This document shows positions 1,670-28,817 of a stretch of 40,555 nt of DNA, in pieces; the stretch's first letter is position 1, and the number at the start of each line of letters is the position of its first letter. The position numbers and the translations under genes are program-made. Location: NCBI GenBank assembly GCA_003971905.1, contig RSEE01000129.1, positions 124,001-164,555 on the forward strand. The letters run 5' to 3'. Below the pieces are notes generated by a model, which was not told the origin of the DNA, ran no database searches, and was given only the letters and a program-made list of their open reading frames with translations. Origin of the DNA: Moniliella sp. 'wahieum' (Eukaryota).

Positions 1670-4600
1670 ATGACCGATCCCCAACAAACCGATCTGTCCG
1701 CCTTCTTGAACATGAACCACGGCTCCGCCACCCCCTACGGCCACCCCAGCTCGGGTGCTCCCCTTTCGATGATGCCCTCTCTGAGCGGCACTAGTCTTTT
1801 CCCCGAAAATTTTTCTTCTCTGTTAGACATCAACATGGCTCCCTTTGATCCCGATCACATCCCCGGGTGCCACTCCCCTGTTTGGTATGCCTCCTCCTAC
1901 CCTGGCCGACGCTGGCTTCCCTACCGACTCTGGTGCCGAATTTGGCGATTCGATGACGTCGACCCGACCATTTGGAGCCTATGATACGCATCCCTCGGCC
2001 CCCATGGCCTTCCCACCATCAGCACCTGCTTCTCAAAATGGAGTAGCCATGGGTCTGGCACGTACGGGCCAAGGCACGATGGGTATCTCCTCTGCCCCCC
2101 TTCCTTCTGACGCCCCGCTTGACCAACCGATGATGGGCGCGGTGATGCCTATTTTGATGGACTCGGGCTACCACCAGCGCATTCTTCAGTACCACCGCAG
2201 TCTTGCCCAACACTGCCTAGGCCCGCAACCTCTCCCCCCCGCCCCTATGTCTGGCAACGGTATTCCGGCCACTATGCAAGGGGGGCAGTCGTCGCTGTCT
2301 CTGCAAGAGCGTCGCCGCCAGAAACGGCTGGAGCAACAAGCTGCGCGCCAGCGCCAGATGCCTCAACACATCACATCTTCTCAACCGAAGCGCACAGCTT
2401 CGTCTACGGGGTTCACTCCTGATTTCCCCCCCGCCCCATAGCCGCGCAAAGATGACAGAGGCGGCGGCTACAGTTGCCGCTCAGGTGCGATCATCTGATT
2501 CCAAGACCACAGGCCTCAACACGACGCAGGAAGGCGTCCTCCTTCCTTCCTCCGCAAGTGTGCAGGACACCGTCGACGGTCGTCAGGCAGAGGCTCCGTC
2601 TAAGGAATTGTCGCCACAGCTACCGCACCATCCCTACTCTGCGTCCGGTTTCGATGTTCTCAAAGCACTTATCAAGGTTGCTTCGCGGCCCAATCCGATG
2701 TCAACATTGGTCCGGTGGACCAGTCGTGTTCCTTTACGATTGTCGATGTGGAATTACCGGACCAGCCGATTGTCTACTGCTCGGACACGTTTCTTCGTCT
2801 GACGGGGTACGAGGAACACGAGGTGCTCGGGCGGAACTGTCGGTTCCTTCAAGCGCCTGCCGGGCTGGTGCAGAAGGGCTCGGAGCGATATGCAACGGAC
2901 CACCAAGCGGTTGAGCATCTGGCCAAGTTTTTGGCCCAAACCAAAGAGTGCCAAGCGAGTCTGATCAACTATCGTAAAGATGGCCAACCGTTTATCAATT
3001 TGGTCACGATTGTGCCCATCACGTGGGACGATGCGGAGCGGATCAAATACCTGGTGGGCTTCCAGATTGACTTGGTGGAGCAACCCGGGTCAATTGTGGA
3101 AAAGATGTCGGATGGTTCGTACTTTGTCAATTACTCGGCCATCAACCCGACGGCCTCTGGCCCGGCAGGGCTGACGGCGCTTGCGTCTCACTGTCTCCCC
3201 CCGAGGCTCGTGGGCCCCGGCGACGGTGAACCTAACCCCTGAGGAACTGGCGATGGAGCGCAAGTTGGACAATGCTGAGAATGTAGCCAAGGCAGTGAAG
3301 GGCAAGTTGGAGCAGCCCTCGTGGGCCAATTTGATCCTGGACAATGCGCACGACCTTACCTTTGTCCTCTCGCTCAAGGGCACCATCTTTTACATGTCTC
3401 CGTCGGTCGAACACATTCTTGGGTTCTTGCCCTCGGACCTGATCGGCTGCTCGATCGCCGACTTTACCCATCCTTCAGACGTGGTACCGGTATTCCGGGA
3501 ACTGAAGGACTCCACCTCCAACGCCTCCATTGCTGCCTCGGCCCGCTCGGCGTCCCACCGTCGTGGACGCACCCAACGCGACTTGGCACCCACGGTCAAC
3601 CTGCTGTTCCGCATGCGCTGTAAAAGCAACTCGTACCGCTGGATCGAGTCGTCGGGCAAGTTGCATCTCGAGCAGGGCAAAGGGAGGAAAGTTGTTGTCT
3701 CGACCGGACGACCGCGACCTGTGTATTATCTTGCGCAGGACATCCTCACCCGCATGGCTTCGACCCAACTGGGATTTTGGGCGCGCGTGTCGACGGACGG
3801 GTTGTTCCTCAATGTGCTTTCGCCCGTGGCGAACGTACTGTGTGTACCGCCGCGCGCATTGATGGGCAAAAAGTTCCATGAACTGTGCGAGCCTGCTGCG
3901 GCAGTCGCGCTTGGGCAGGCGGTACACACGTCCCATCCGACAGCTGTGTTGCATACCCTGTCGGCGACCGAGGGGCAAACAGTGAATGTAGTGTCGAGTT
4001 TGTATCCCAGCCCATTGATGGAGCCGGAGACGGTGCATGCGTCGGCGCATGTGAGCGTCTGGATGCACATTGCGCGTGCCACCACCAAGCAGATGGATGA
4101 ATGGCCCGCCAACCTCGTCCTTTGTCCCGACAAGACCGCCAACGAGGAAAAGAGGAGTCGAACGTGTTTTGCGAGATGGCGCCAGGGCGTGGATCGAGTT
4201 GGTGCTACGAACTACACTTGCTCAAAAACATCAATCGACGACTCAAGGAAGATCTGCGTACGGTGCACAAGAACCGTCTCGGATCCCGTTCCCATTCCTC
4301 CTTGCTCGACCCCACCCTACCTGTGGGACGGCGCCGTCGGGCCAAGAACGCCCCTTTGACCGATGCGGCGATTCGGGAGATGCTCTACTCGGCGCTGCAG
4401 CCTCAACCCGGCGAGCGTGGACCGTTTGCTCCTGTCCAGGGCAAGCCACTTTGCACCCGTTCCTCCTCTTCCGAGGAAGGCAGCGCAAGTGGGAGTGGGA
4501 GCGGGAACGGAAGCGGGAACAAGGACCGGGGCGGCACCAGTCGCTCTTCCACTACCCCCACCGTGTCCAACCCGGGCTCAGGGATTCGGTCCACCGTCTC

Positions 4601-4887
4601 CTCGGACCTGTTACCACGAGAAAGTTCCGAGTCGACCAGTGCCACTTCGCAACTTGCGTCTGAGGAGAGTGGGAAAGAGGTCGGCAAGCCCGATACTCCC
4701 CTTTCGTCGGCCGCGACCGTACGATATGACCTCGGGTCCGGACGGCTCCACCGAGTCGTCTCTCCTCCTCGGCGCGGATTACCTCACGTACCTCCCTCCC
4801 GCTTCGTTTTCGCGCGACGCCTTGGGTTCCGGCACGGGCTCCGGCTCTGCCTCTGCCTCCGGCTCCGGCACAGGATTCGCACCTTGA
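1670..4887 (+). CDS. wc-1: White collar-1 blue-light photoreceptor (LOV + PAS domains, no C-terminal GATA zinc finger seen); several frameshifts
   Basis: N-cap YSASGFDVLKALIKVASRPNP, then LOV with GRNCRFLQ (about 2829) and NYRKDGQPFINLVTIVP. PAS repeats follow (LSLKGTIFYMSPS...HPSDVVPVFRELKD...WIESSGKLHLEQGKGRK), then the C-terminal RGSSWCYELHLLKNINRRLKEDL motif. Assembled from ORFs 1631, 1845, 2452, 2715, 3181, 4101 and 4363; start ATG (MTDPQQ) and stop are inferred. Confidence 0.92.
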
Positions 4888-6618
4888 TCTCAATTCATCC
4901 ATCCTCCCGAGCTGTGTACCGGTTTATTTTGTCCCCTCTGCATCGTTTTTGTTCGTGGTAGGCTGTTCTTCCATGACAACATATGTGACATGTGGCATGA
5001 TGGGACGATCCTCTCCTTTTGACGCTCGTCTCATCTCTCTCCCCCCTCTGGGTTGTTCTTGTTCTTTGTTTCTTGTTTCCTGTTCGCCATCCCGCATCCT
5101 CCTTGTTTTTTGTTGGTTGCGGGGGTACCGAGGATCATGTCGATTGGCATACTCGGTCGCAGCTGCTACGTGCTCTTGTTGTCTGTTTTGTATCTTGTTC
5201 GTACCTCGTGGACTGTTGTTTGGTGGCGAAATTAGGCGCAGCGAAAACCCTTGAACCTGTGGTCCAGCACGCACCCGTGGTTCGTGCTCGCGTTGCGTTG
5301 GCCATATGCAGCCTGCATGGTCCATTGGCGCAGGGTGAACGTTGAACGTTGTACGTTGATTGATAGTATCTTGCTACTTGCTATTCTACCCGCGACTTTA
5401 GTATCTATAGATGCGAGACCTTCCTCCGGGATAGGAGATAAGTCAGCGAGGCAATGGAGGATAAGCTGTACATGCTCTCTCTTCCGTGGCCACTATATGA
5501 TCTCGATAGTCAACTTCTCGCCTCCACACCTTGAGACCAGGCGAGACGCATTCCGACTCCCGTTGGCAGCGCACTGCTACTGACCAAACCCACATCCATT
5601 CCATCCAGACGGAGATGTCACTGCTAAGGAGGATATAGCAGAGTGTGAAACGATACTTGCGACGAATAAAAAACACTACAGTTCGGCTTCGTGAACTTAG
5701 GAACCGAAACAAGAAGGATGAAAATGGAAGAGTATCATAGGAGAGTAGGGCGGGCTACCAAGCACACCACAGAACAACAACCCTCTGGATCGAGATCACA
5801 CTCACTTGTGATCAGAATGAGGACGGTGTGCTTGCTTGCAGGGCGAGCTAATAGTAGTACCAGATCCACATGAAGCAGCGAGGACTTTTGGCACAGCCAT
5901 CGTCACTCTTGCCAATGATTCTCACTTCCTGATACATTATAGGTATAGACCCCCCCTTTGAACTCCTCGTATCCAAATAGCACATTGAGAGGCTGCCGGG
6001 TGGTGGAGCACGGCGGTTGAGGCGATGAAACGACCTTCGCCCACCATTGTCTGAAACACCTTCCCTTAAACCGATGACCGAAACGTCCATCCGTGCGCAA
6101 CGCACCCCAACGAAGAGAGAGGATGGTAGTAGGGGGGGAGCCATTGGTATCGTGGTACCCTGCTGTTCCCTGTTCCCTGTGGGCTTTGCCCGAAACGAAG
6201 AGCAAGATGAGAAGACAGGATGGACGTTGCAGTGGCCTGTGCCCCGCAAATCTCGCTGGACAACTGTACGGGTCACAGTGGGAGCGCATGGGCCCGGACC
6301 GTGGGCGACGACAGAGCGGATGGGAGAACCGGCGCGGGCGTGAAGGCCTAGCATGAGTTTGCGTTTAATACCCGTCGCTGTCGTGGCAGCGTACTTCTGT
6401 TCTGCTTGTCCTCTTTTCTGTTCTTCTGCCCTTTTTATACTCACTGGGTTGAGTGCCTATCGATCATCGAGATCATCTATCTACCCTATCAACCCCATCT
6501 ATCCCATCTACCTCGTCCCTCTCACCAATCTCATCCACAGGTACGCCGCCTGTGCAACGCGCAGCAAAGTCGCTCGAGTAGGACTGGGAACCATGCATAT
6601 CGCGCTCTCTGTCCTGTC

Positions 6619-9600
6619 TCACGCCGCTGTTCCCACCAGCGCCGGTGTGGGCGCCCGGTCAAACAGCAAGCGACGTGGGGGCGGGAGTGTAGGTCGTGTA
6701 CTGACGAGCGAAGGAAGGCCCGTACCCAAGCCATGGGTTGGCTTGCCCATGATGATGCTCTCGGACACACCTTCGATCCCATCGTTCTTCCCAAACATGC
6801 GGCATCAACAAGTGGTCCGTCGTCTTTTCAAACGACGCGAGCATCAGCACGCTGTCCTTCATCTTGGCCACACCAAAGCGCGTGATGCCCAGTACTTCGC
6901 CCTTGTACGACATGACGTCCGCCAAGAGCATGACGTGGCGCGGATCGACGCCCAAGCCATGTGCGCTCATGGTTTCTTGAATCTCGTTGTAGATGGAGGA
7001 ACGGGCAGCTTCGATGCCCAACACGTCGCACATTTCCATCACGTGGTTGGTGTAGGTATGCGTGCCGACGACGCCGACGGTGGTCATGACTTCCTTGAGG
7101 CCGTAGCCTTCGGCCCGGACCTTGTAAATGCCCTTTTCGGGTGTGACGATCGCATGAAGAATATGTTGGTTGCCAGCGACCACAATCGAGTCCAATTGCC
7201 GCCGCAGCGCCGAGAGCGCATACGACCCATTCTCATCTTCTCGGTCAATGTAGATGCGGATCCGGCCCAGCTTCTCCGACATTTGCACACGCGACTCGTT
7301 GATGCGCAACTTGGGCGTCTTGACAATCGCCCGCTTCACGTCCGCCACACTGATTTCCAACTGCAGTTTGGAGATGGTCTCGAGATCGACGTGCAGGCCA
7401 ATGTAGGCATAGTCCCGTCCTACCACCCCTCCACCACGCTCGTCACGTCCGTCAAGTACGTCTTCTCGATCCGGCCCTTGACGATCCGTGCCGCTGCCTC
7501 GCTCTTGTCCGATACCAAGCTGGTCTCGATGATCGGGGTGGAAATCACCTTGGCGGCATTGATGATCTCTTTGATCCGCGGTACACCGCGCGTGACGTTC
7601 ATTGAGGCCACACCGCAAAGTGGAAGGTTTTGAGGGTCATTTGTGTGCCCGGCTCACCAATGGATGAGCGCCGATCGCTCCGACAGCCGTGCCCGGTTCG
7701 GACCTTGGCACGCATATACTTTTCCCGCACAACTGCAAGAACTTGTCCACGGCCGCTACGGTGACCTTGGTCTTGTTCTCCACCACTTGGATCGACGCAG
7801 CGTCCGCACCCATGGTCAGGTCCGTATCTTCGTCCCAATCCCCTTCGCGTTCTTGCGCCGGGTAGAGACCATAAGCCTCCCGAATCTGCGCGGCACGCTT
7901 CACCACCGAATCCACGATGAACGCACGGATCTGTTGGCGGTACATGAGCGTGGACTGGGCAAAACGAGGCTGGGCAAGATGCTTGTCCACCAGCTCTGTG
8001 ATTTCAAACGGCAACAAGGTGCGCGAGGGAACGTTGCGCGTGATGGCGCGCGCGTGGCGCCAGGTGCGCATGTACTCGACCGGCAGTGCATCGGCTTCGA
8101 GCTCGGCCGGGTCCAACCCATCGTCTCCATAGACGAATTGGACCACGCCTCCTACCGAGTTACGGACCGATGTGTCGTAGTGCGTCGACAGGTCTTCCAG
8201 CGCCTTCATCAACCGACGTTGCATGTACCCCGTCTCGGCCGTCTTACTGCCGTGTCGACGAGACCCTCACGGCCCGAGATGGCGTGGAAGAGGAATTCGG
8301 TGGGGTAAGGCCAGTGTAGAACGAGTTGCGAACAAATCCTTTACTCGGCGGGTCCTTGCTCTCTTGGCAAAGTGCGGGAGCGAACGTTCTTGGAACCCAT
8401 TGGGAACACGTTTGCCACTAATAATTTGCTGTCCTACACAGGCCACCATTTGCGCCACATTGATCGTGGATCCCTTGGAACCACATACGGCCATTACCAG
8501 CGGAGCGTTGTGGCGACTCAGTTCGGACATGCAGATGTCACCCACATCTTTCCGAACATCCGACAGCACGCCCGAAATCTTGTTTTCCAGCGTCAGGTCT
8601 TGGTCGCACCCAGGCTCGTTTTGCAGCTGGCCCAACTTGGCCTTCTCGATCAGGTCCAAGCAGCGCGCATAGGCAACCTCAACCTTATCGTCCTTGTGGG
8701 TCGACAGCTTGATGCCCGGCATGACATCGTTAATGCCCAAGGAAAAGCCTTGGTTGGTCAACCAGCGTGCGCACGTCTTGGCCAACCGGTTCATACCTTC
8801 GCTCGCCACGTTCGAACCATAGTCGCGCTGCATCACACCAAAGATGGAGTTCTTCTTGCCATCTCCCACCGACGCCTTGTCCACCACACCACACATGATC
8901 TCACTGTTCTGAATCACGAGGAAGCCATCGTTGGGCGACATGTCCTCAATGTACCCAGCGCGCGGCTTTTCAAACGTACGGCACTTGGCCTCTAAGTTGA
9001 CCAGCACATGGCCCGCTTCGCGGTTGTTAGGGCGCATTAATAGGCCAAACGCTTGCTTGCCTGTCCAGAGCCGCTCTGGCTTGAGGATGGTTGGCGGCGG
9101 AAGGTCAATGTGCGTAGTGCCATCGCCAAACGCAGCGCACACCTGGGCCAACTGGGCACGGTTGAACAGCCGGTCACGCTTGGTCAAGAGGTACGACGCT
9201 GTAATAAAGTCTTGGGTCGCCGCAATGATCGGTTCGCCGTTGCGGGGGTAATCAGGTTTTTTTGACGCCCATCAAGATGGTGGCCTCGGTACGGGCCTCT
9301 TCAGTCTGGGGAACGTGCATGTTCATCTCGTCGCCGTCAAAATCGGCATTGTAGGGGTTGCAGACACACTCGTTGAGACGGAACGTACGCCATGGCCGCA
9401 CCTTGACGCGGTGGCTCATGATGGACAGCTTGTGCAGCGAAGGTTGCCGGTTAAACAGCACAATGTCATCGTCGTGAATGTGGCGTTCGACAATGTCGCC
9501 AATCTTGAGGTGCTTGGCGCCTTCTTCGCGTCGCGCCATAAACTTGATCATACGCTTAAAGCCGGTCACCCCATCCTCAATAAAGTTGGCACCCGGATGC

Positions 9601-10915
9601 ACGTCCGGACCATTGATCACGGCCTGTCGGAGTTTTTCAATGTTGTGTTCGTTGACGCGCTCAGGGTATGTCAAGATCTTGGCCACACGCTCGGGCACAG
9701 CCACCTCGTCAATACGCAAGTTGGGTCGGGGGGATGACGGTACGACCAGAGAAGTCGACACGTTTGCCGCTCAGGTTCCCACGGAACCGACCTGCCTTAC
9801 CCTTGAGTCGTTGACAGAACCCGCGAACGGGTTTCCCCGCGCCAGGACCCATGCTCTGCGCTACACCAGGCAGCTCCGAGTTGATGTAGAGTGCACAAGT
9901 CATTTGGAGAAAGTCCCATTGCTCGACGAGCTGGTTGATGGGCGCGCCGCGCGAGATGGAGGTGCGCACCAACGCATTGGCAAACACAATCTCAGCAATC
10001 TTGATTGTCAGGTCATCCTCATTGGTCGCCGTCTCTTGCTGCACGGCAGGGCGGATGCAAAACGGGGGGACGGTGATGTACTGCCACAGATACTCCTCCG
10101 GCGACCGTGTTCAGGACGGAGACCTAGCAGCTCGCAGTCCTCGTCCGAGATGCGCTTGAACAGCTCGAGGACCTTGAGTGGGTTCAGGTCGTCCTGTGCA
10201 CGATTGAGGTGCTGTTTGACGTCGGTCCCGCTCCCAGGGCCAGAGCCGCCGGTGCTGATCATGTAGTCGAACGAGTCATAGAACTGAGCTTGTTCCTCGG
10301 CCGTCTTTTTGGCCGGAACTTTTCGTGGACGATTTTCAACGGCCCCGCCTTCTTGACAACGCCGTTGGTGTTGCCACAGTGGGGGCAGTGGACGACTTTG
10401 CGAGCGGCTGTGTTGACCTGCTTGAAGGTTTGGGTGCGCTTGAGGTTCTCGAGCCCACGACGGCGAAACGCGCGCAAGTACTTGCGTCGGTCCGCTTCGT
10501 CGAGCAGGACGGTGGAGCAGCTCTTGCAGATGACCTGGAGGATGGAGATGGTGTGCTTAAAAAAGCCGACGTGGAAGACGGGGAGCGAGTTTGACATAGC
10601 CAAAGTGGCCGACACAGTCGCTCATATCCTTGTGGCACGTTTCGCATGTGCCGTCCTTGCTGACACACCTGGAGCGCACGAGAGGGTCAGAACGAAGAGG
10701 CCGGGCCAGAGAAGAGGGGAGGCAGGGAGGGAGAGCGGACGTACGAGGCGAGCATCGTTGGGCCCGCCGGGCATGGGCTTGTTGGAGTTGGGCTCATAGA
10801 GAGAGCGGTCGACGACCTCGACCTGGGAGAGCTCGACAATCTCCGAGGGCGACAGGACGCCGAACTGGATGGACTTGATGCTCTTGGGAGCGCCCGACTT
10901 GACGATCTCCTTCAT
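6619..10915 (-). CDS. RPC1: RNA polymerase III largest subunit; intron 10669-10744; frameshifted
   Basis: Catalytic [67 protein letters not shown] and [28 protein letters not shown]. It lacks the YSPTSPS CTD of RPB1. Intron has GTACGT donor, CTGAC branch and CAG acceptor. Stop TGA at 6619-6621 after frame correction. Confidence 0.96.
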
Positions 10916-21167: not shown

Positions 21168-22172
21168 TTAGTTGGCCGCCTCGCGCTGAGCACGGCGCTG
21201 GTCGCGCTCCTCGGTGATGGTGAGCTTAATGCCACCGCCAGGGGAGGGAGATCAAGTGCTGACCGTCGTTGCCAGTGATGAAGATGTTGCCAATGCGGGT
21301 GGAGAACTCGCGGCCGATCGGGTCGGACATGGACAATGTCAAAGCCCCCGGGTGAGAGTCACGGCCAATGATCACGCCCACACGGCCCTGGTTACGGCCG
21401 CCAGTAGCCATGACCGAGGCGCCCTGTTGGAACTTGACAATCTCCTCCAGCTTGTTCTCAACCAAGTTGAACTTGATCGAGTCGCCGGCCTTAACGTCCG
21501 GGTCCGGTAGCGGATGGTGCGGCCGTCGTGGGTGACAATGTGGGGCACGCCGCGCGGGCCGAGCTCTGCACGCTTAACCTTGAGAGCTTGTAGGCAGCCT
21601 CCTCGGGGGCAATGCGGTGGACCACAAACCGGCCCTTAACGTCGTAGAGGATACGGAAGTACTCGCCCGACTTTTCAATGCTAATCACGTCCATAAAGCC
21701 CGTGGGGTAGGTAATGTCGGTGCGGACCTTGTTGTCAACCTTGATCAGGCGCTGCTGAACAATGGTGTTGACCTCGCGGCCGTTGAGCGCGTACTTCAAG
21801 CGGTTGCGCAGCAGCACCTAGACCCAACACCACAACAGCGTCAGTTGTGCGCCCAGCAGAAAGGGGGCAAAGGAGGGAGGTAGGCAGACAAGGCCAGAAG
21901 GAGACTCAGACAAGACATCGAAAGAAGGGTGTCGCCACAGAGGATCCGAAAGCCATGCATGATGTGTAGAATAGCATCATCGTCTCTTCAGGGCCAGTCT
22001 GCCTAGAAAGGGGCGCGGGGGGAGGAAAAACGTACCACCATCGGGAGGCTCTCACGGAGCTTGTGGGGCCGGGTGCTGGACGGGGGGCGTACACGCCGCC
22101 GCCGAGCTTGTCGAGCATCCAGCTCGAGGGGGCTGCGAGCCGCTTGAGGTGCTTACGGGGACCACGGACCAT
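21168..22172 (-). CDS. RPS4: 40S ribosomal protein S4 (eS4); intron 21818-22035
   Basis: [50 protein letters not shown] and [12 protein letters not shown]-terminus ...[12 protein letters not shown]. Intron GTACGT...CTGAC...TAG. Confidence 0.97.
21901..21986 (-). ncRNA. Candidate intronic box C/D snoRNA in the RPS4 intron
   Basis: Minus strand reads GAGAC-g-ATGATGC (C-box-like) ... CTGA (D box)-GTCTC. The terminal stem GAGAC/GTCTC flanks both boxes; length about 86 nt; it lies about 55 nt upstream of the branch point. Confidence 0.7.
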
Positions 22173-23271
22173 ATTGGGCAAACAGAAACTGACGCAGGGA
22201 CGGTGGCGGGTAGCGCAAGCGTCGAGCGGGTTGTCGGCAGCAAGCACCCACCTGGCTTGCTTGCTGGGCGCACAGTGCGCCAGGCCAGTCCGCCGGCACT
22301 AAGCAAGTAGGGTTGCAACAAAAGCTTCGCATGGCAGGAGGCGAGTGTGTGCAAGCGCTGCACACAGGCCTGGCAGGACATATGGGGGAGCAATTGCCGC
22401 TGCGTTGCGGCGCAATAACTCGTCATTAGGGTTGCATCCTTCTCTGGCCGACCCGTCCAGTTTCACATTTCAGCTTTTTGCAGTGCGCTGAAATACTGGA
22501 TGGGCTTTGTCCGCTCCGCGTGAGTAATTTTGGTTATTTGCTCTCTTGGGCACTACGCCAGCGCTGATGGCCCCGTGAGACGTGAGCGCGTGAGGCGTGC
22601 GTGAGGCCCATGTGGAGTGTGACGAGCAACAGGCCAAACTCGTTCAGTCTGGGCGTTAAATGTCCCTCTAGCTTTACAGAAAACGCTGAGGCTCAGGCAT
22701 ACTCAACCGAGCTGTCGTGACGCTTGCCCACTTTGCCCGTGGACCGCCAAAGTGCGTCAACCTTTCGCGCTCAGCCCGGCTCCGTGCCCTGCCCCCTCTA
22801 TTTTCCAAGCGGAGGCGCTATAACGGCAAATAGATGAATGCTACGGCGCTGATCCTGGGAAAACACTATACTACGTGACTTGACTGCCCAGAAAACATGC
22901 ATACTTAGTATAATATACACCCCTGTTGGTTGTTGCTTCCTCGATCGCTTTGCCCTCTTTGTTATTGAGTGTGTTCCGACACACTCTGTTGCAACCCCCA
23001 AAAGGGGCTATCCATCAGCCTGCGGTGTAGGTCCCGCGCCCCTAGGACGACAGGGTTGTGACACTATAGACCCCCAACAGCAACTACGGCAACAGTGTCC
23101 ACCAGCACGACTGCCCTTCTGCGCTGCTCAGACGCAGCCATCAACGATCAACGTTTAACGTTTAAACAGAGGGTGCGTCTCGCCGCGCACTCCCACACAG
23201 CACTGGCTACCCCCCCTCAGGCCTCCTATTGAATATTCAATCCCCCTTCTTCCCCCTCCTCCCCCCCTTCC

Positions 23272-23785
23272 ATGACCAAGCCAATCGGCATCGCTCTCCG
23301 CACGTCCTCCTCGTGCGTGCTGTCTGGGAGAACGATCAGGCGACAGTCATTCCCAACGACCAGGGCAACCTCAAAACTCCCACTTCTGTCGCCATCGACG
23401 AATGGCCGCGTCATCAATGAAGTGATGAGAGACCGCTCACCCCATCGACATTACCCGCCACAACACAGTGTTTGGCACCGCTCGCGGATTCGGCGATGAG
23501 GTGGTCCAGTCGGACATGCAGCAGTGGCCCTTCTAAGTGATTGACGTCGACGGCGAGCCCATGGACGAAGCCGAGTTCAAGGGCCAGGCCAAGAAGTTCA
23601 CCCCCCAGCAGATCTCAGCCATGGTGTTGGTCAGATGCGCAAGACGGCGGAAGCGTACGTTGGCGAGCGAGTAGAGGACGCCGTGGTGACCATGCCTGCC
23701 TATTTCGGCCCTCGCAACGTCAGGCGATCACCCACGCTGGCACGATGGCTCGCCTCCGCACCTCGCGCATCATTGACGAGCACAG
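23272..23785 (+). pseudogene. Degenerate 5' fragment of a cytosolic Hsp70 (SSA-type)
   Basis: MTKPIGIALRTSSSCV / VWENDQATVIPNDQGNLKTPTSVA resembles GIDLGTTYSCV..NDQGNRTTPSYVA. Then VVQSDMQQWPF*VIDVDG with an in-frame TAA, EFKGQAKKFTPQQISAMVL, MRKTAEAYVGERVEDAVVTMPAYF and SQRQAITHAG..RIIDE. Conserved residues are lost and homology stops after about 170 codons. Confidence 0.88.
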
Positions 23786-23896
23786 ATCGCCCGCCCTCTG
23801 GTGCTTCCCTCAGATAGACAGCTGGACCCTTGTCGTCCCATAGTAGTCATTGTACAGCGAGATCGCCTGCGCTCTGGTGCCTCCCTCAGACAGTCA
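23784..23896 (+). repeat. Imperfect about 37-bp direct repeat at the Hsp70 truncation point
   Basis: agatcgcccgccctctggtgcttccctcagatagaca (23784-23820) versus agatcgcctgcgctctggtgcctccctcagacagtca (23860-23896). Confidence 0.8.
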
Positions 23897-24227
23897 TGTT
23901 CGCTTGTGCTCATGCGTGTGTTAGTCATGTATAGCCGACCCGGCCTGGAAGCCAGATGTGGAGATGGAGGGTTGTTCAATCAGAGGAGAGTCCTGAGCGG
24001 ATTGGTTGATAGAGGCGAGAGAGAGACAGAGACGATTACAGAGTGGTTTCGTGAGCTAGCCATGTGACCATGTAATCTGTCACGTGATCAGGTTGACACA
24101 TTGCTGCATGATGTTTGTTCGGCAAAAGTCATGTTTCTGTGCACTTCCCATGCCCAAAGCCCCCTCTTTCCCAACGTCCGAAACGGGATCATCGATCATG
24201 ACGGTCACGACCCTGGGTTCTCACTGG

Positions 24228-25000
24228 CTACAAGAGTAGCAAACTGGGATCGTGGGCGTTGACAATCCGCACATCCGGATTACGGCCAAGAAGAGCTCGG
24301 AGAGGCGATGCTGGTTGGAGCGAAGCAGCGCACGGTCGTGAGCAAATGCAGTTTCTTGAATGCGCAAAGACAGTGGAACCTTAGAGACGCGGTCAAGTGT
24401 GCCATGGTGGTAAAACGCGTCTCCGGCATGAAGAATCCAACAACCGTTGTCGCCACGTACCGCGACTGCGGCGTGGCCACGACTGTGGCCAGCTAACGGG
24501 ATCAACAGAATGTCCGGATCAACGTCGGATAACACTGTCACCCCTGAAAAGCCGTGCCACGCGCTTGATCCGGGCGGGTGAATAACAAACTGGGGCTTGT
24601 GGGACCACTGCTCAGAGGCGTAACGCATCCCCTCCCACCACGAAGGATGCTCAAATGCACCCACAGCTTCGTCGGCCGTCACATGAACCTTGGCTTGTGG
24701 AAAGTCGGCGATTCCACCGGCGTGGTCGCCATCGAGATGAGTGAGCACAATGTGCCGCACATTTTGAGGATGGAGGCCAAGTTGCTCAATTTGTCGGTAG
24801 GCGCTCTCGGATTCTTTCACTGCAGGCTGGATCACAAAGCGGTAAGGCCCAAAAGCGCGGGCCGAGTTATTTGCGTCTTGGAGACCCAGCCCTGCATCGA
24901 CGAGGACCAACCCATTTTGGGTTTCCAAGAGAAGGACATGAGAAACCAAGTGGGTGCCAAACAGCTTCATGCTGCCGCAATTGAGGTGATGGATCCGCAT
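24228..25000 (-). CDS. Metallo-beta-lactamase-fold hydrolase, bacterial-like, intronless; one frameshift near the C-terminus
   Basis: MRIHHLNCGSM, LVLVDAGLG, metal motif THLDGDHAGG, GHSRGH and LHAGDAFYH. An alternate frame near 24280 restores PDVRIVNAHDP (last His ligand), ending at TAG 24228. Confidence 0.9.
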
Positions 25001-25915
25001 CTTCTAGCAGCTTTGAAAGAAGAGAATTGACGTGGGGGTTCTCTCGGGCGAGACCGACCAAGGCACACGGGGGGGTCAGGAACTTGGGTGGAGAGTACCA
25101 CTGGTGCCTCCAGCAGGCAAACCGAGGGACCAAAAGGGAGATGGTGGGAGTTTAATATGCAATCGAGCCAATAGTGAGACCAAAGAACACGGGACGCGAG
25201 CACCCCTCGACAGGTCAACTTCACCGGAGATAAGAGCTCACAGGAGCACCACACGCGCCTGCCTTCCGCATATGTGGTGGTACACACTTTCGTTTTCCCT
25301 CCTATCTTCCAAGCATGACCGTGTGACGCGGCGCCACGGGGCTAAGGCGGGCGGCCGAGCCTGGTGGCCGAAGCTTTGCTCCCACCCCAGCCCCTTTTTT
25401 CCCGATTCTTATTCCCCACAACGCCATCCGACACTCGCTTGCCATATCTCCCCTTCATCCATCATCGACCATCCTTCCTTCCCCCGCCTCACATAGTGTG
25501 AATACTATCCTCTCACGTTGTATATCGGTGCCCAGCTCTCCCCTTTGTTCCTTGTGTATGCCACCAAAAGATAGTATAGACGTCTTTCCCCGTGCAATCC
25601 CCCGGCGTCCAGTGGGGTGGCTTGCTTGCCCGGGTGGAGTGTGCGCACGGACACCCACGTCAAGCTTCAAGCGTTAAGCTTCAAGGCCCGTAGCGTCGAT
25701 CGCATACGAGGTATGCACCTTTCTGTGTGTCTGTGGCCGACTCACACGGTACCCCGCGTGGGACTGGGAGGTTGTAGCGAGTGACGTCATGTCACGTGGG
25801 GCAGCCTTGACGCCACGGGGCCCTGCCTTTTGTACCCCCACACCCATCTGCTGCCTGGCAGGGCTGCGTCCCTCTTGGCACCACTGATGCGGCCTCTTCC
25901 CTCTGCCGCCGCCGG

Positions 25916-28817
25916 GTGCTCAGTCGACCCCATCGGTTTGCATGCGCAGCCCGACATGCTCCCCGTCGCCCCCATCCCACACGCCATGCTTCCTCTTCCT
26001 CTTCCTCTTCCGTCGCCGCCGCCAAGCCCAAATCCCACCAGCTTGGGCCCTACCCAGCCCCTCATCCCGACGTGTTTGCGCATGCCGAGCAAGACGAGTA
26101 CTACTCGGACGGAAGCTCCTATGTCCTGTCCAGCGGCGGCGAAGACGACGAGGAGGACCCAGATCAGAACCCGTCCCTTACTCGCCAGCTTGCCGAGACC
26201 GCGGTCGGTGTGCGCGAGATGAGCAAGCAGCTGGGCCGGGCCCGGGTCAAGAGCAAAATCGAGAGTGTCCTCATCATCACCAAGGCACGCGACAACCAAC
26301 TCATCACTTACACCCGCCAACTCGCGCTTTGGCTCATGCTGAGCGAACGTTCCCGTGGGCGGGGACTGATCGTCTATGTAGACCAGCAATTGCAGCGATC
26401 CAAACGGTTTGACCCAGACGGCATCAAGCGCGACTACCCGCATCTGTTCCAGCCGATTGCACATCGCGCCGAGCGCCGCTCTTCAGCCGGTACGCCCACC
26501 GACCCCGATCCCGTCCCTTATGCGGGCCAGCTGCGGTACTGGACGCCCGACTTGTGCACCGAACAACCCGAGCTTATCGATTTTGTTGTCACGCTGGGTG
26601 GGGATGGGACGGTCCTGTTTGCCTCGTGGCTGTTCCAGCGGATCGTACCTCCCGTCTTGCCATTCTCGTTGGGCTCGCTTGGTTTCTTGACCAATTTTGA
26701 GTTTGGCCAATTCAAAAAGGTGATGGAGTCCGTCCTGGACGATGGGATCCGGGTCAATATGCGGATGCGCTTCACGGCAACCGTTTATGTACGTTCCCCT
26801 TTGCCTGTTCTTCGTTGGCTTGGTTCTCCAAACCTAATGTTCCCCTTCAGTCAGTACTGACCACAGAATGGGCACTTTTCAGCGTGTGGTGCGGGACAAG
26901 GAGAATGAAGCGGAGCGTCAATGTGCGATCAAGTGCGGCAAGACGGGTGCGATCTACATGAAGGAAATGGCGCGCGGGGCATGGCAGACGATTGAGAACG
27001 ACAAGCATGAGCATTGCACCTCCAACAAACGCACCAGTCCCGATTCGCAGCAAGGCGATGGCTGTCCGGCCATGGACAAGGAGGTCAAATGCTTTACCAC
27101 CCGCCCTCATGAGACGTTTGAGGTGTTGAATGATTTGGTTGTTGACAGGGGCCCTAGTCCGTTTGTTACGCTGCTCGAGATTTTCGGCAATGAGCATCAC
27201 ATGACAACAGTGCAGGCGGATGGGATCTGCATTGCTACCCCAACAGGTTCCACTGCCTACTCGCTTGCGGCTGGTGGTTCGCTCGCCCACCCCGAGATCC
27301 CGGCCATCCTCATCACGCCCATTTGCCCGCACACGCTTCTTTCCGACCCATGCTCTTGCCCGACAGCATGAACGTTCGCATCGTGGTCCCGTACAACTCG
27401 CGGAGTACTGCCTGGGCCAGCTTTGATGGCCGTGGCCGGGTGGAGCTCAAGCCCGGCGATCATATCAAAGTCACAGCCTCCAGCTATCCGTTTCCCACTG
27501 TATGCCGCGAAAACCAATCGGTCGATTGGTTCCGTGCCATCTCCTCCACCCTCAAGTGGAACGAACGGCAAAGACAAAAATCGTTTGTTGTTCTCGAAGA
27601 CGACGAAGAGGAAGACGAGTTGCAGGAAAAGGACATTCCGTCTCCGTCAGGACAAGAACGAGGCACGCTTCAGTCGCCGTCTTCCCCACCACAACTGGAC
27701 GCGTCTTCCCAATCCCTTGTCCCCCTACAACATACCGTTCATAACAATAACCTTGTTGCCGATTCCGCATCGTCCGCCCCTTCAGGCCCCAATGTCCCTC
27801 GTGCTTCAGAACGGTCTTCACCTCCATCTCCACAACGCAGGGGAGCGAACCAATCATCGGGTTTAAGCTCAAGGGGTGAAGCTTCGTATGATATTGAAGA
27901 GCGCACCCGTCCCGTCACCCCGTGCGAAAGCGTCCCTCCATCCGCTTCTTCCGCCCCAGTACCTTCAAGTGGGGAAATGAGACGGTCGCAATCGGGAAAA
28001 CAGCGCAAGACTGAAGCGCTGCCTCGTTTGCCTCTTTCGCATTTGACTCGTACCCACGCGCCTAAAGGGATGCGAATGAGCTCCTTGCGCTCACCCGCGC
28101 CCCGTTCTCGTTTGGCCTCCCGGTCTGTTCCGGGAAGTGGTGCCCATACACCGGTAAGCGCCTCGGGCAGTAATCTCCCCATGTCTCTATCCACCAGCCG
28201 CGCTCGCTCCCTTCCCCGTCCAACCTTGGCGCACAGCCGACCGCAACAGAGGACTTCCGTGATGAACTGCCGCCTGGAAAGGCGGAGTTACACCCCCATG
28301 CTGAGGACGAAATGGACCAGGACAGGGCCTCAGGTTTGCAGGGCAGCGACGCACCTGCTTCCTGGGCGAACGAGGGCGAGGAACGGAAGAGCGACAGTCC
28401 TCCGCTCTCGTACAGTCCTGACCGGTACGGAAGTCCCGGTCCACCCAAGCCGCCTATCGCGGTCTCGCAACGCCACATGTTAACCGCTGGATTCCGTCAG
28501 CCGTCCCTTACCACGCCCCTTTCGCCCGAGAGGAGCCATCCCCGACGGCGCCAAAGTAGTGTTGCCGTCGAGTTGGCCGCGAGTGCCAACGCAGCGCGGC
28601 AAACTGCGGCGGACCGACGCGCCTCGATCGTGGCGGGCATCCTGGTGGATCATATGATAGCCAGCTCACAACACCCCATCCTCCCCCCGACCCTGGTCGC
28701 GGTGGGCTCAGACGGAGCAAAACGGCTCTTGTGGTCTATGGTGATGACGACTCGGATTCGGAAATTGAGGAGGAACCAAGAAGGGGACATGTTGCCTATT
28801 CCCGCCATGTCCTTTAG
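25916..28817 (+). CDS. ATP-NAD(H) kinase (Utr1/Yef1 type) with a long low-complexity C-terminus; intron 26789-26882; start uncertain
   Basis: [86 protein letters not shown] and [10 protein letters not shown]. Intron GTACGT..CTGAC..CAG joins TVY to RVV in frame. Confidence 0.93.

Follow-up and report, generated by a model that had tools for sequence, protein, structure and literature searches.

Lactonases of the MBL fold that act on AHLs are characterised by the motif HxHxDH~H~D~H, for which a two-zinc mechanism has been set out (PMC13413597, in its accessible part). A putative lactonase with a different signature, HXDXDH, has been described in Acinetobacter baumannii as Y2-AiiA, the product of A1S_2864, its activity not being proved in that study as far as the accessible text goes (PMC6146095). 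Fungi also possess MBL-fold hydrolases. The benzoxazolinone lactamase Mbl1 of Fusarium (PMC4726666) and AsPLa of Aspergillus (PMC13413597), which are compared here through the accessible parts of their published descriptions, are both ascomycete enzymes with the canonical HxHxDH. Yeast BDS1 is an MBL-fold hydrolase that was presumably acquired from bacteria, according to the accessible portion of PMC5610705. A survey of 829 fungal genomes reported 20,093 transferred genes, with Actinobacteria making up 36% of the donors, and its supplement, in the part available, gives MBL-fold best matches for many of these genes (PMC11708051); the table holds at least 84 occurrences of 'MBL fold', a count whose link to the HxDxDH family needs the sequences. 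Degradation of lactones or AHLs has been reported in basidiomycetous yeasts, in sources available in part. No fungal gene of the HxDxDH/Y2-AiiA type was found in the literature covered, most subscription journals being outside that coverage.

Here we describe a gene of this type in a stretch of 40,555 nucleotides (the window) on contig C129 of a 69.5-Mb fungal assembly. The explanation that we consider probable is that a single lactonase-type MBL gene was transferred into a fungus of the Ustilaginomycotina, that the window copy is probably intact and that its sister copy has been destroyed.

The gene and its family

The features of the locus to which the text refers are as follows.

21241..22172, minus strand: RPS4-like spliced host flanking gene
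22799..24200, plus strand: genome-wide repeat patchwork including an Hsp70 fragment; contig C14 has a 31-nt match only
24228..25000, minus strand: gene for an MBL-fold hydrolase, HxDxDH (Y2-AiiA-like) family; about 257 aa with the frameshift bridged
24249..24257, minus strand: C-terminal A-H-D motif with the last metal-binding His, in the shifted frame only
24286..24296, minus strand: frameshift of one base, probably a deletion introduced by the assembly
24410..24487, minus strand: H172 (GHSRGH) with D194 and Y197 (GDAFY), aligned with the AiiA region that holds the His, the bridging Asp and the Tyr
24722..24739, minus strand: metal motif H88-L-D90-G-D92-H93, Asp replacing the second His of HxHxDH
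24855..25000, minus strand: all of the coding sequence that survives in the sister copy (G000:C14), where it contains a premature stop and is truncated by a high-copy repeat of about 85 nt
25001..25940, no strand: spacer separating the MBL gene from the divergently oriented NAD kinase gene; identity to C14 about 95%
26219..26788, plus strand: N-terminal domain of NAD kinase (PF01513), host flanking gene, at four syntenic loci

The gene is encoded on the minus strand with its start codon end at 25000, and both the N-terminus MRIHHLNCGSM and the motif HLDGDH, which had been picked out by a sequence-only reading of the window, are present in the open reading frame. That reading had also described a compact intronless gene of about 257 aa ending at 24228. 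The gene is indeed intronless, but the frame in the assembly runs from 25000 to 24221, with its stop at 24221, and encodes 259 aa. No Shine-Dalgarno-like site was apparent by eye upstream. The protein scores 59.4 bits against Pfam Lactamase_B (PF00753; gathering cut-off 22.7), which places it in the MBL superfamily. HLDGDH occupies residues 88-93 and has Asp for the second His of HxHxDH, and the protein thereby departs from the motif of the canonical AHL lactonases (AiiA, AttM, AidB, AhlS, YtnP). The sequence-only reading noted this as a variant metal motif; HxDxDH is the norm of the family and neither peculiar to this gene nor a fungal change, being found in 120/120 top matches, 80/80 genome loci and, among distant representatives, 134 of 150. 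Further along, GDAFY aligns with DASY of AiiA and puts a Tyr three residues after the bridging Asp.

The A. baumannii homolog, in which the motif reads HLDFDH, aligns with the fungal protein over its full length (39% identity over 249 columns, E 6e-50). Both published primers for A1S_2864/Y2-AiiA map into this homolog with one mismatch each, where none would be expected by chance, and the fungal protein can therefore be assigned to the Y2-AiiA family. The two share the HHLxCG start, HxDxDH and the GH and GDAxY motifs; the present gene differs in its branch, which is separate and actinobacterial, and in its location on a fungal chromosome. The earlier suggestion of an uncharacterised subfamily related to lactonases thus stands as to the relationship, which sequence and fold both bear out, but the group is the Y2-AiiA group and not wholly uncharacterised. 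Y2-aiiA of Burkholderia cepacia is reportedly an active quorum-quenching lactonase (Malesevic et al. 2020, as cited by others). A family member in Burkholderia multivorans, which may or may not correspond to the B. cepacia enzyme, is 39% identical to the fungal protein.

The actinobacterial homologs, known by automatic names only ('MBL fold metallo-hydrolase'), match the fungal protein over its full length and have the same active-site residues. The closest among the matches listed, P0002 (64%) and P0003 (63%), are both without organism annotation and likewise carry HLDGDH. A third, P0006 (MEE1296470.1, 57%), is a protein from a metagenome-assembled genome (MAG) of Bifidobacterium sp. and joins the nearest by tree, and the homologs of Rothia kristinae, Streptomyces, Mycobacterium and Nonomuraea are 51-56% identical.

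Predicted fold and function

A single-sequence model of the fungal protein was uninformative (pLDDT 33), and the fold results refer to P0002, an intact homolog modelled with a pLDDT of 97.5. This model has a lactonase-type fold (Z 24-27): it matched AhlX with a Z score of 27.4 and AiiA, GcL and 4-pyridoxolactonase with scores of about 24. The organophosphate hydrolases (methyl parathion hydrolase and OPHC2-type) gave 18-23 and true metallo-beta-lactamases about 16. With the AHL lactonases AiiA, AhlX, AttM/AiiB, GcL and 4-pyridoxolactonase the P0002 model has the fold in common at TM 0.69-0.77, and the fungal protein has, as they do, the H~D~H ligands and the Tyr after the bridging Asp; they differ from it in having HxHxDH where it has HxDxDH, and identity is 18-28%. 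In the curated NCBIfam collection the protein scored far below the cut-offs of the lactonase equivalogs (AttM 66.7 against 390, AiiA 56.1 against 375, YtnP 43.8 against 425) and did not reach those of the beta-lactamases (B3 30.4 against 240, B1 16.4 against 200, class B core 26.9 against 100), which suggests a lactonase-like action outside those curated families.

By alignment with AiiA, and by the roles of the corresponding residues in that enzyme, H88, D90 and H172 would bind one metal ion and D92, H93 and the C-terminal His a second, with D194 bridging the two and Y197 helping to polarise the carbonyl of the substrate. A metal-bound hydroxide would then open the ester ring of small diffusible lactones, be they AHLs, butyrolactones or toxic lactones. 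As the N-terminus forms the first strand of the fold, no signal peptide and a cytosolic enzyme are expected. A cytosolic metal-dependent lactonase is therefore our best reading of the residues and of the homolog's model, with AHL quenching as one option only. Given an intact gene, lactonase activity seems likely; that AHLs are the natural substrate is possible but doubtful.

It is unlikely that a protein of the same origin performs other chemistry, the exchange of His for Asp and the conserved N-terminal His and Cys adapting it as a lactamase, phosphotriesterase or thioesterase. Such a protein would account for the matches to methyl parathion hydrolase and OPHC2-type folds, and it draws on the lack of a solved structure of the HxDxDH family among the matches (the best Foldseek and VIA identities were 19-31%) and on bacterial neighbourhoods that give no hint of a substrate. 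When 160 such loci were clustered only lineage-specific synteny was seen, and 5 of the 19 neighbouring reading frames scanned had Pfam matches, none of which points to a substrate. Lactonases are nevertheless the best matches by both sequence and fold, and the activity claimed for the B. cepacia enzyme is in the same direction.

Bacterial relatives and the four copies of the locus

When 5.8 billion proteins were searched, 7,339 matches were obtained among 8,000 scored candidates. By hand count 41 of the best 120 of these are labelled with an organism, in every case one of the Actinomycetota; a profile search with the nearest sequences gave 34 named within its best 120, again all Actinomycetota. 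No named eukaryote is among the matches listed (the 41 and 34 named in the best 120 of each search), a scope that more distant fungal homologs could escape. The same database contains proteins of Ustilaginomycotina, and the homocitrate synthase of the window finds as its first named matches Ustilago tritici, Tilletiaria, Sympodiomycopsis, Tilletia and Pseudomicrostroma, which is our reason for placing the host in that group.

A maximum-likelihood tree (IQ-TREE, LG+G4; 44 rows, hand-picked from about 400, with supports from the unrooted tree) joins the fungal protein to P0002, P0003 and P0006 with support of 99.4/100. This four-member clade sits within a clade of 31 tips (99.5/100) whose named members are all Actinomycetota, as would be anticipated from the acquisition from bacteria that the sequence-only reading had proposed and for which it had called for a phylogeny; both best matches and tree neighbours are bacterial. 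Within the larger clade the four join the Rothia kristinae cluster and Brachybacterium at 72/75, a weak support. AU tests did not reject placement outside the actinobacterial clade for the fungal protein (p 0.077) or for the four-member clade (p 0.23), and FastTree put that clade in different positions in two runs. A bacterial origin of the gene is supported by these comparisons of sequence; within the HxDxDH (Y2-AiiA-like) family, the donor bacterium would lie in the Actinomycetota branch or adjacent to it.

GC3 of the gene is 0.59, compared with 0.67-0.81 in 11 neighbouring host segments, and is also below that of six bacterial homologs (0.73-0.95). The family is patchily distributed: in a sample of 401 genomes from the order to which Brachybacterium belongs, only three matched P0006, the best at 47%, and no close relative was found. 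A metagenome scan yielded only distant bacterial-type loci (40-47%) and did not recover the contigs of P0002, P0003 and P0006. P0002 has matches in 75 records of a plasmid collection, very large replicons among them, and Pantoea accounts for 47 of these 75.

The position of the gene between housekeeping genes, as described by the sequence-only reading, is borne out. On one side is an RPS4-like gene, so labelled from its N-terminus, and on the other the NAD kinase gene. NAD kinase is found at four places in the assembly, on C129 (the window), C14, C96 and C106. C129 and C14 are colinear over about 30 kb at 94-95% identity, C96 and C106 form a second pair at 94% identity, and these two match the window at about 80-85% over the coding parts of RPS4 and NAD kinase. 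Four syntenic copies in two pairs suggest an allopolyploid, a hybrid or a mixed assembly. C14 retains the spacer together with 146 nt from the start of the MBL gene, which include a premature stop, and the match then ends in a break. The gene is thus physically integrated among host genes on two contigs with a common junction, a result which favours acquisition from bacteria. The spacer may possibly serve as a shared promoter for expression of the MBL and NAD kinase genes. C96 and C106 have neither a protein match to the MBL gene nor a DNA trace of it; the interval between RPS4 and NAD kinase there holds a SET-domain gene instead (L020:3550-4359 on C96), with other copies on C115 and C10. This SET-domain gene, presumably Set9-like, lies here in one subgenome pair only, a single-gene relocation that involves the site at which the MBL gene stands. 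Apart from the C14 remnant, tblastn of the assembly found no host paralog of the MBL gene.

The break on C14 adjoins an element of about 85 nt for which the genome offers 543 candidate matches; 40 of these were scored, and 39 proved to be full-length matches elsewhere at 90-96%. Short multi-copy repeats of this kind were noted at L002:1416-1500 (about 85 nt) and at 22802-22868 of the window (about 67 nt), and on C154 the two share an orientation, are separated by about 1 kb and may represent the ends of one element. A CACTA end at 22868 was considered, and its far-end match was not seen by eye. A 31-nt match between the filler on C14 and 24162-24192 of the window was rejected as a remnant of the 3' flank on the grounds that this stretch also matches elsewhere. 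The 'decayed Hsp70' that was said to lie tail-to-tail with the gene is a convergent Hsp70 fragment (PF00012, 21.2 bits against a cut-off of 20.6), but it has not decayed in place, being a piece of a genome-wide repeat: 22868-23795, which comprises a 5' coding fragment of Hsp70 and upstream DNA, matches C170, C69, C21, C124 and C101 at 76-88%. With copies on at least five other contigs this piece resembles a gene fragment captured by a mobile element. Elsewhere in the window, what is presumably a PAS-domain White-Collar-1-like gene (1670-4961) is split into several frames.

The same data would allow for an older transfer, which we regard as unlikely, in which P0002, P0003 and P0006 are fungal orthologs mis-assigned in metagenomes, the recipient was ancestral to the host group and the gene was later lost from the B subgenomes. 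The four sequences do form a separate long-branched clade, with a GARP/FYMINK ratio (1.7-2.2) below that of most, though not all, of the relatives in actinobacteria. The contigs of P0002, P0003 and P0006 are all 4-6 kb long (that of P0006 being a 4.3-kb MAG contig), from which it follows that the three could be mis-binned fungal genes, and P0006 is isolated among the genomes from the order of Brachybacterium. Set against this, the sole named member, P0006, is annotated as Bifidobacterium sp., and the next branch, weakly supported as it is, consists of the Rothia kristinae cluster and Brachybacterium. Mis-binning would in any case make the transfer older and would not remove it.

A more detailed scenario, which is speculative and again unlikely, has the gene taken up by one of the two subgenome lineages, after they had split, from a host-associated actinobacterium resembling Bifidobacterium or Rothia, lodged at the NAD kinase promoter region and used in quorum quenching, with the four loci as a series of gain then loss. 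Were this uptake and this function true, the gene would be a eukaryotic member of the HxDxDH family, of which there is none among the matches listed.

The reading frame and the standing of the gene

The match of the fungal protein to its relatives stops near residue 237, and the remaining 21 or so residues of the 259-aa frame are probably wrong. The TAG at 24228 belongs to another frame, which reads GRNPDVRIVNAHDPSLLLL up to that stop. The C-terminus of the family, including the AHDP motif, is found in this neighbouring frame, and a one-base frameshift near codon 238 (24286-24296) must be bridged to reach it; past the break the sequence aligns without gaps with the C-terminus of the closest homologs and gives a protein of 257 aa. 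With AHDP in the neighbouring frame, it follows that the sequence-only reading, in giving 257 aa and an end at 24228, had read through the frameshift without reporting it. The C-terminal xHD metal ligand accordingly lies in the shifted frame, behind what is probably an assembly error.

The frequency of such breaks could be gauged from neighbouring genes. In 6400-10600, which we take from its translated reading frames to be the gene for the RNA polymerase III large subunit (RPC1), bases are missing from the window copy relative to C14 at 21 sites of non-triplet length, over a stretch of 4,201 nt that may include introns, and from the C14 copy relative to the window at 39. These 60 non-triplet indels in 4.2 kb fall mostly within short runs, and frame breaks in this assembly are for this reason to be presumed errors. 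Homocitrate synthase and NAD kinase together show 3 non-triplet sites relative to C14 in 2,623 nt. From these rates between 0.9 and 3.9 breaks are predicted in 774 nt, with a probability of at least one of 0.59-0.98. In a 96-row alignment 57 of the 60 columns conserved at 80% or more are retained in the fungal protein, and two of the three missed are the His and Asp beyond the frameshift. On the indel rates and the conserved columns together we judge that the frameshift is probably an error of an indel-rich assembly and that the window copy of the gene is probably intact.

That the gene was transferred and is now dead or dying, the frameshift being real, the last metal-binding His lost and both copies that hold the gene being pseudogenes, is in our view quite unlikely. 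The C14 copy is clearly destroyed by its stop codon and repeat insertion, two other syntenic copies have no gene and GC3 has not adjusted to the host, all of which a dying gene would explain. The window copy, however, runs for 237 codons with no stop before the break and keeps 57 of the 60 conserved columns, the sequence after the break still fits the family C-terminus without a gap and even essential genes in this assembly commonly show such frameshifts. A vertically inherited fungal gene is highly improbable: MBL-type lactonases and lactamases do exist in fungi and only the best 120 matches were listed, but Mbl1 and AsPLa carry HxHxDH in the accessible descriptions, named eukaryotes number 0/41 and 0/34 among the matches listed and two of the four syntenic copies are without the gene. 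An assembly chimera or contaminant is barely credible, for all that the assembly is noisy and the 3' side of the gene lies within repeats, since the same NAD kinase-MBL junction occurs on an independent contig that is 5% diverged and was struck by its own insertion of a host repeat, and no other bacterial-looking reading frame was seen by eye beside the gene.

We therefore return to the transfer of a single lactonase-type gene as the reading to be preferred. Under it the gene would now be arranged head-to-head with its host neighbour, the NAD kinase gene, in one of the subgenome pairs, its sister on C14 would have been destroyed by a repeat and the window copy would probably be intact. The significance of this is modest. 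The event is a well-supported but ordinary transfer from bacterium to fungus, and such transfers already number thousands, with many MBL-fold genes among them, in the accessible part of PMC11708051; what is added is the identity of the family and the pattern of presence over four copies. If intact and active, the gene would be a candidate for the degradation of lactones or AHLs in a basidiomycete. It may also open a way into a large bacterial family that has Asp for a zinc-binding His and is without a close solved structure, and, with the gene present, truncated, absent and absent in its four copies, the locus may let gain and loss be dated inside one assembly.
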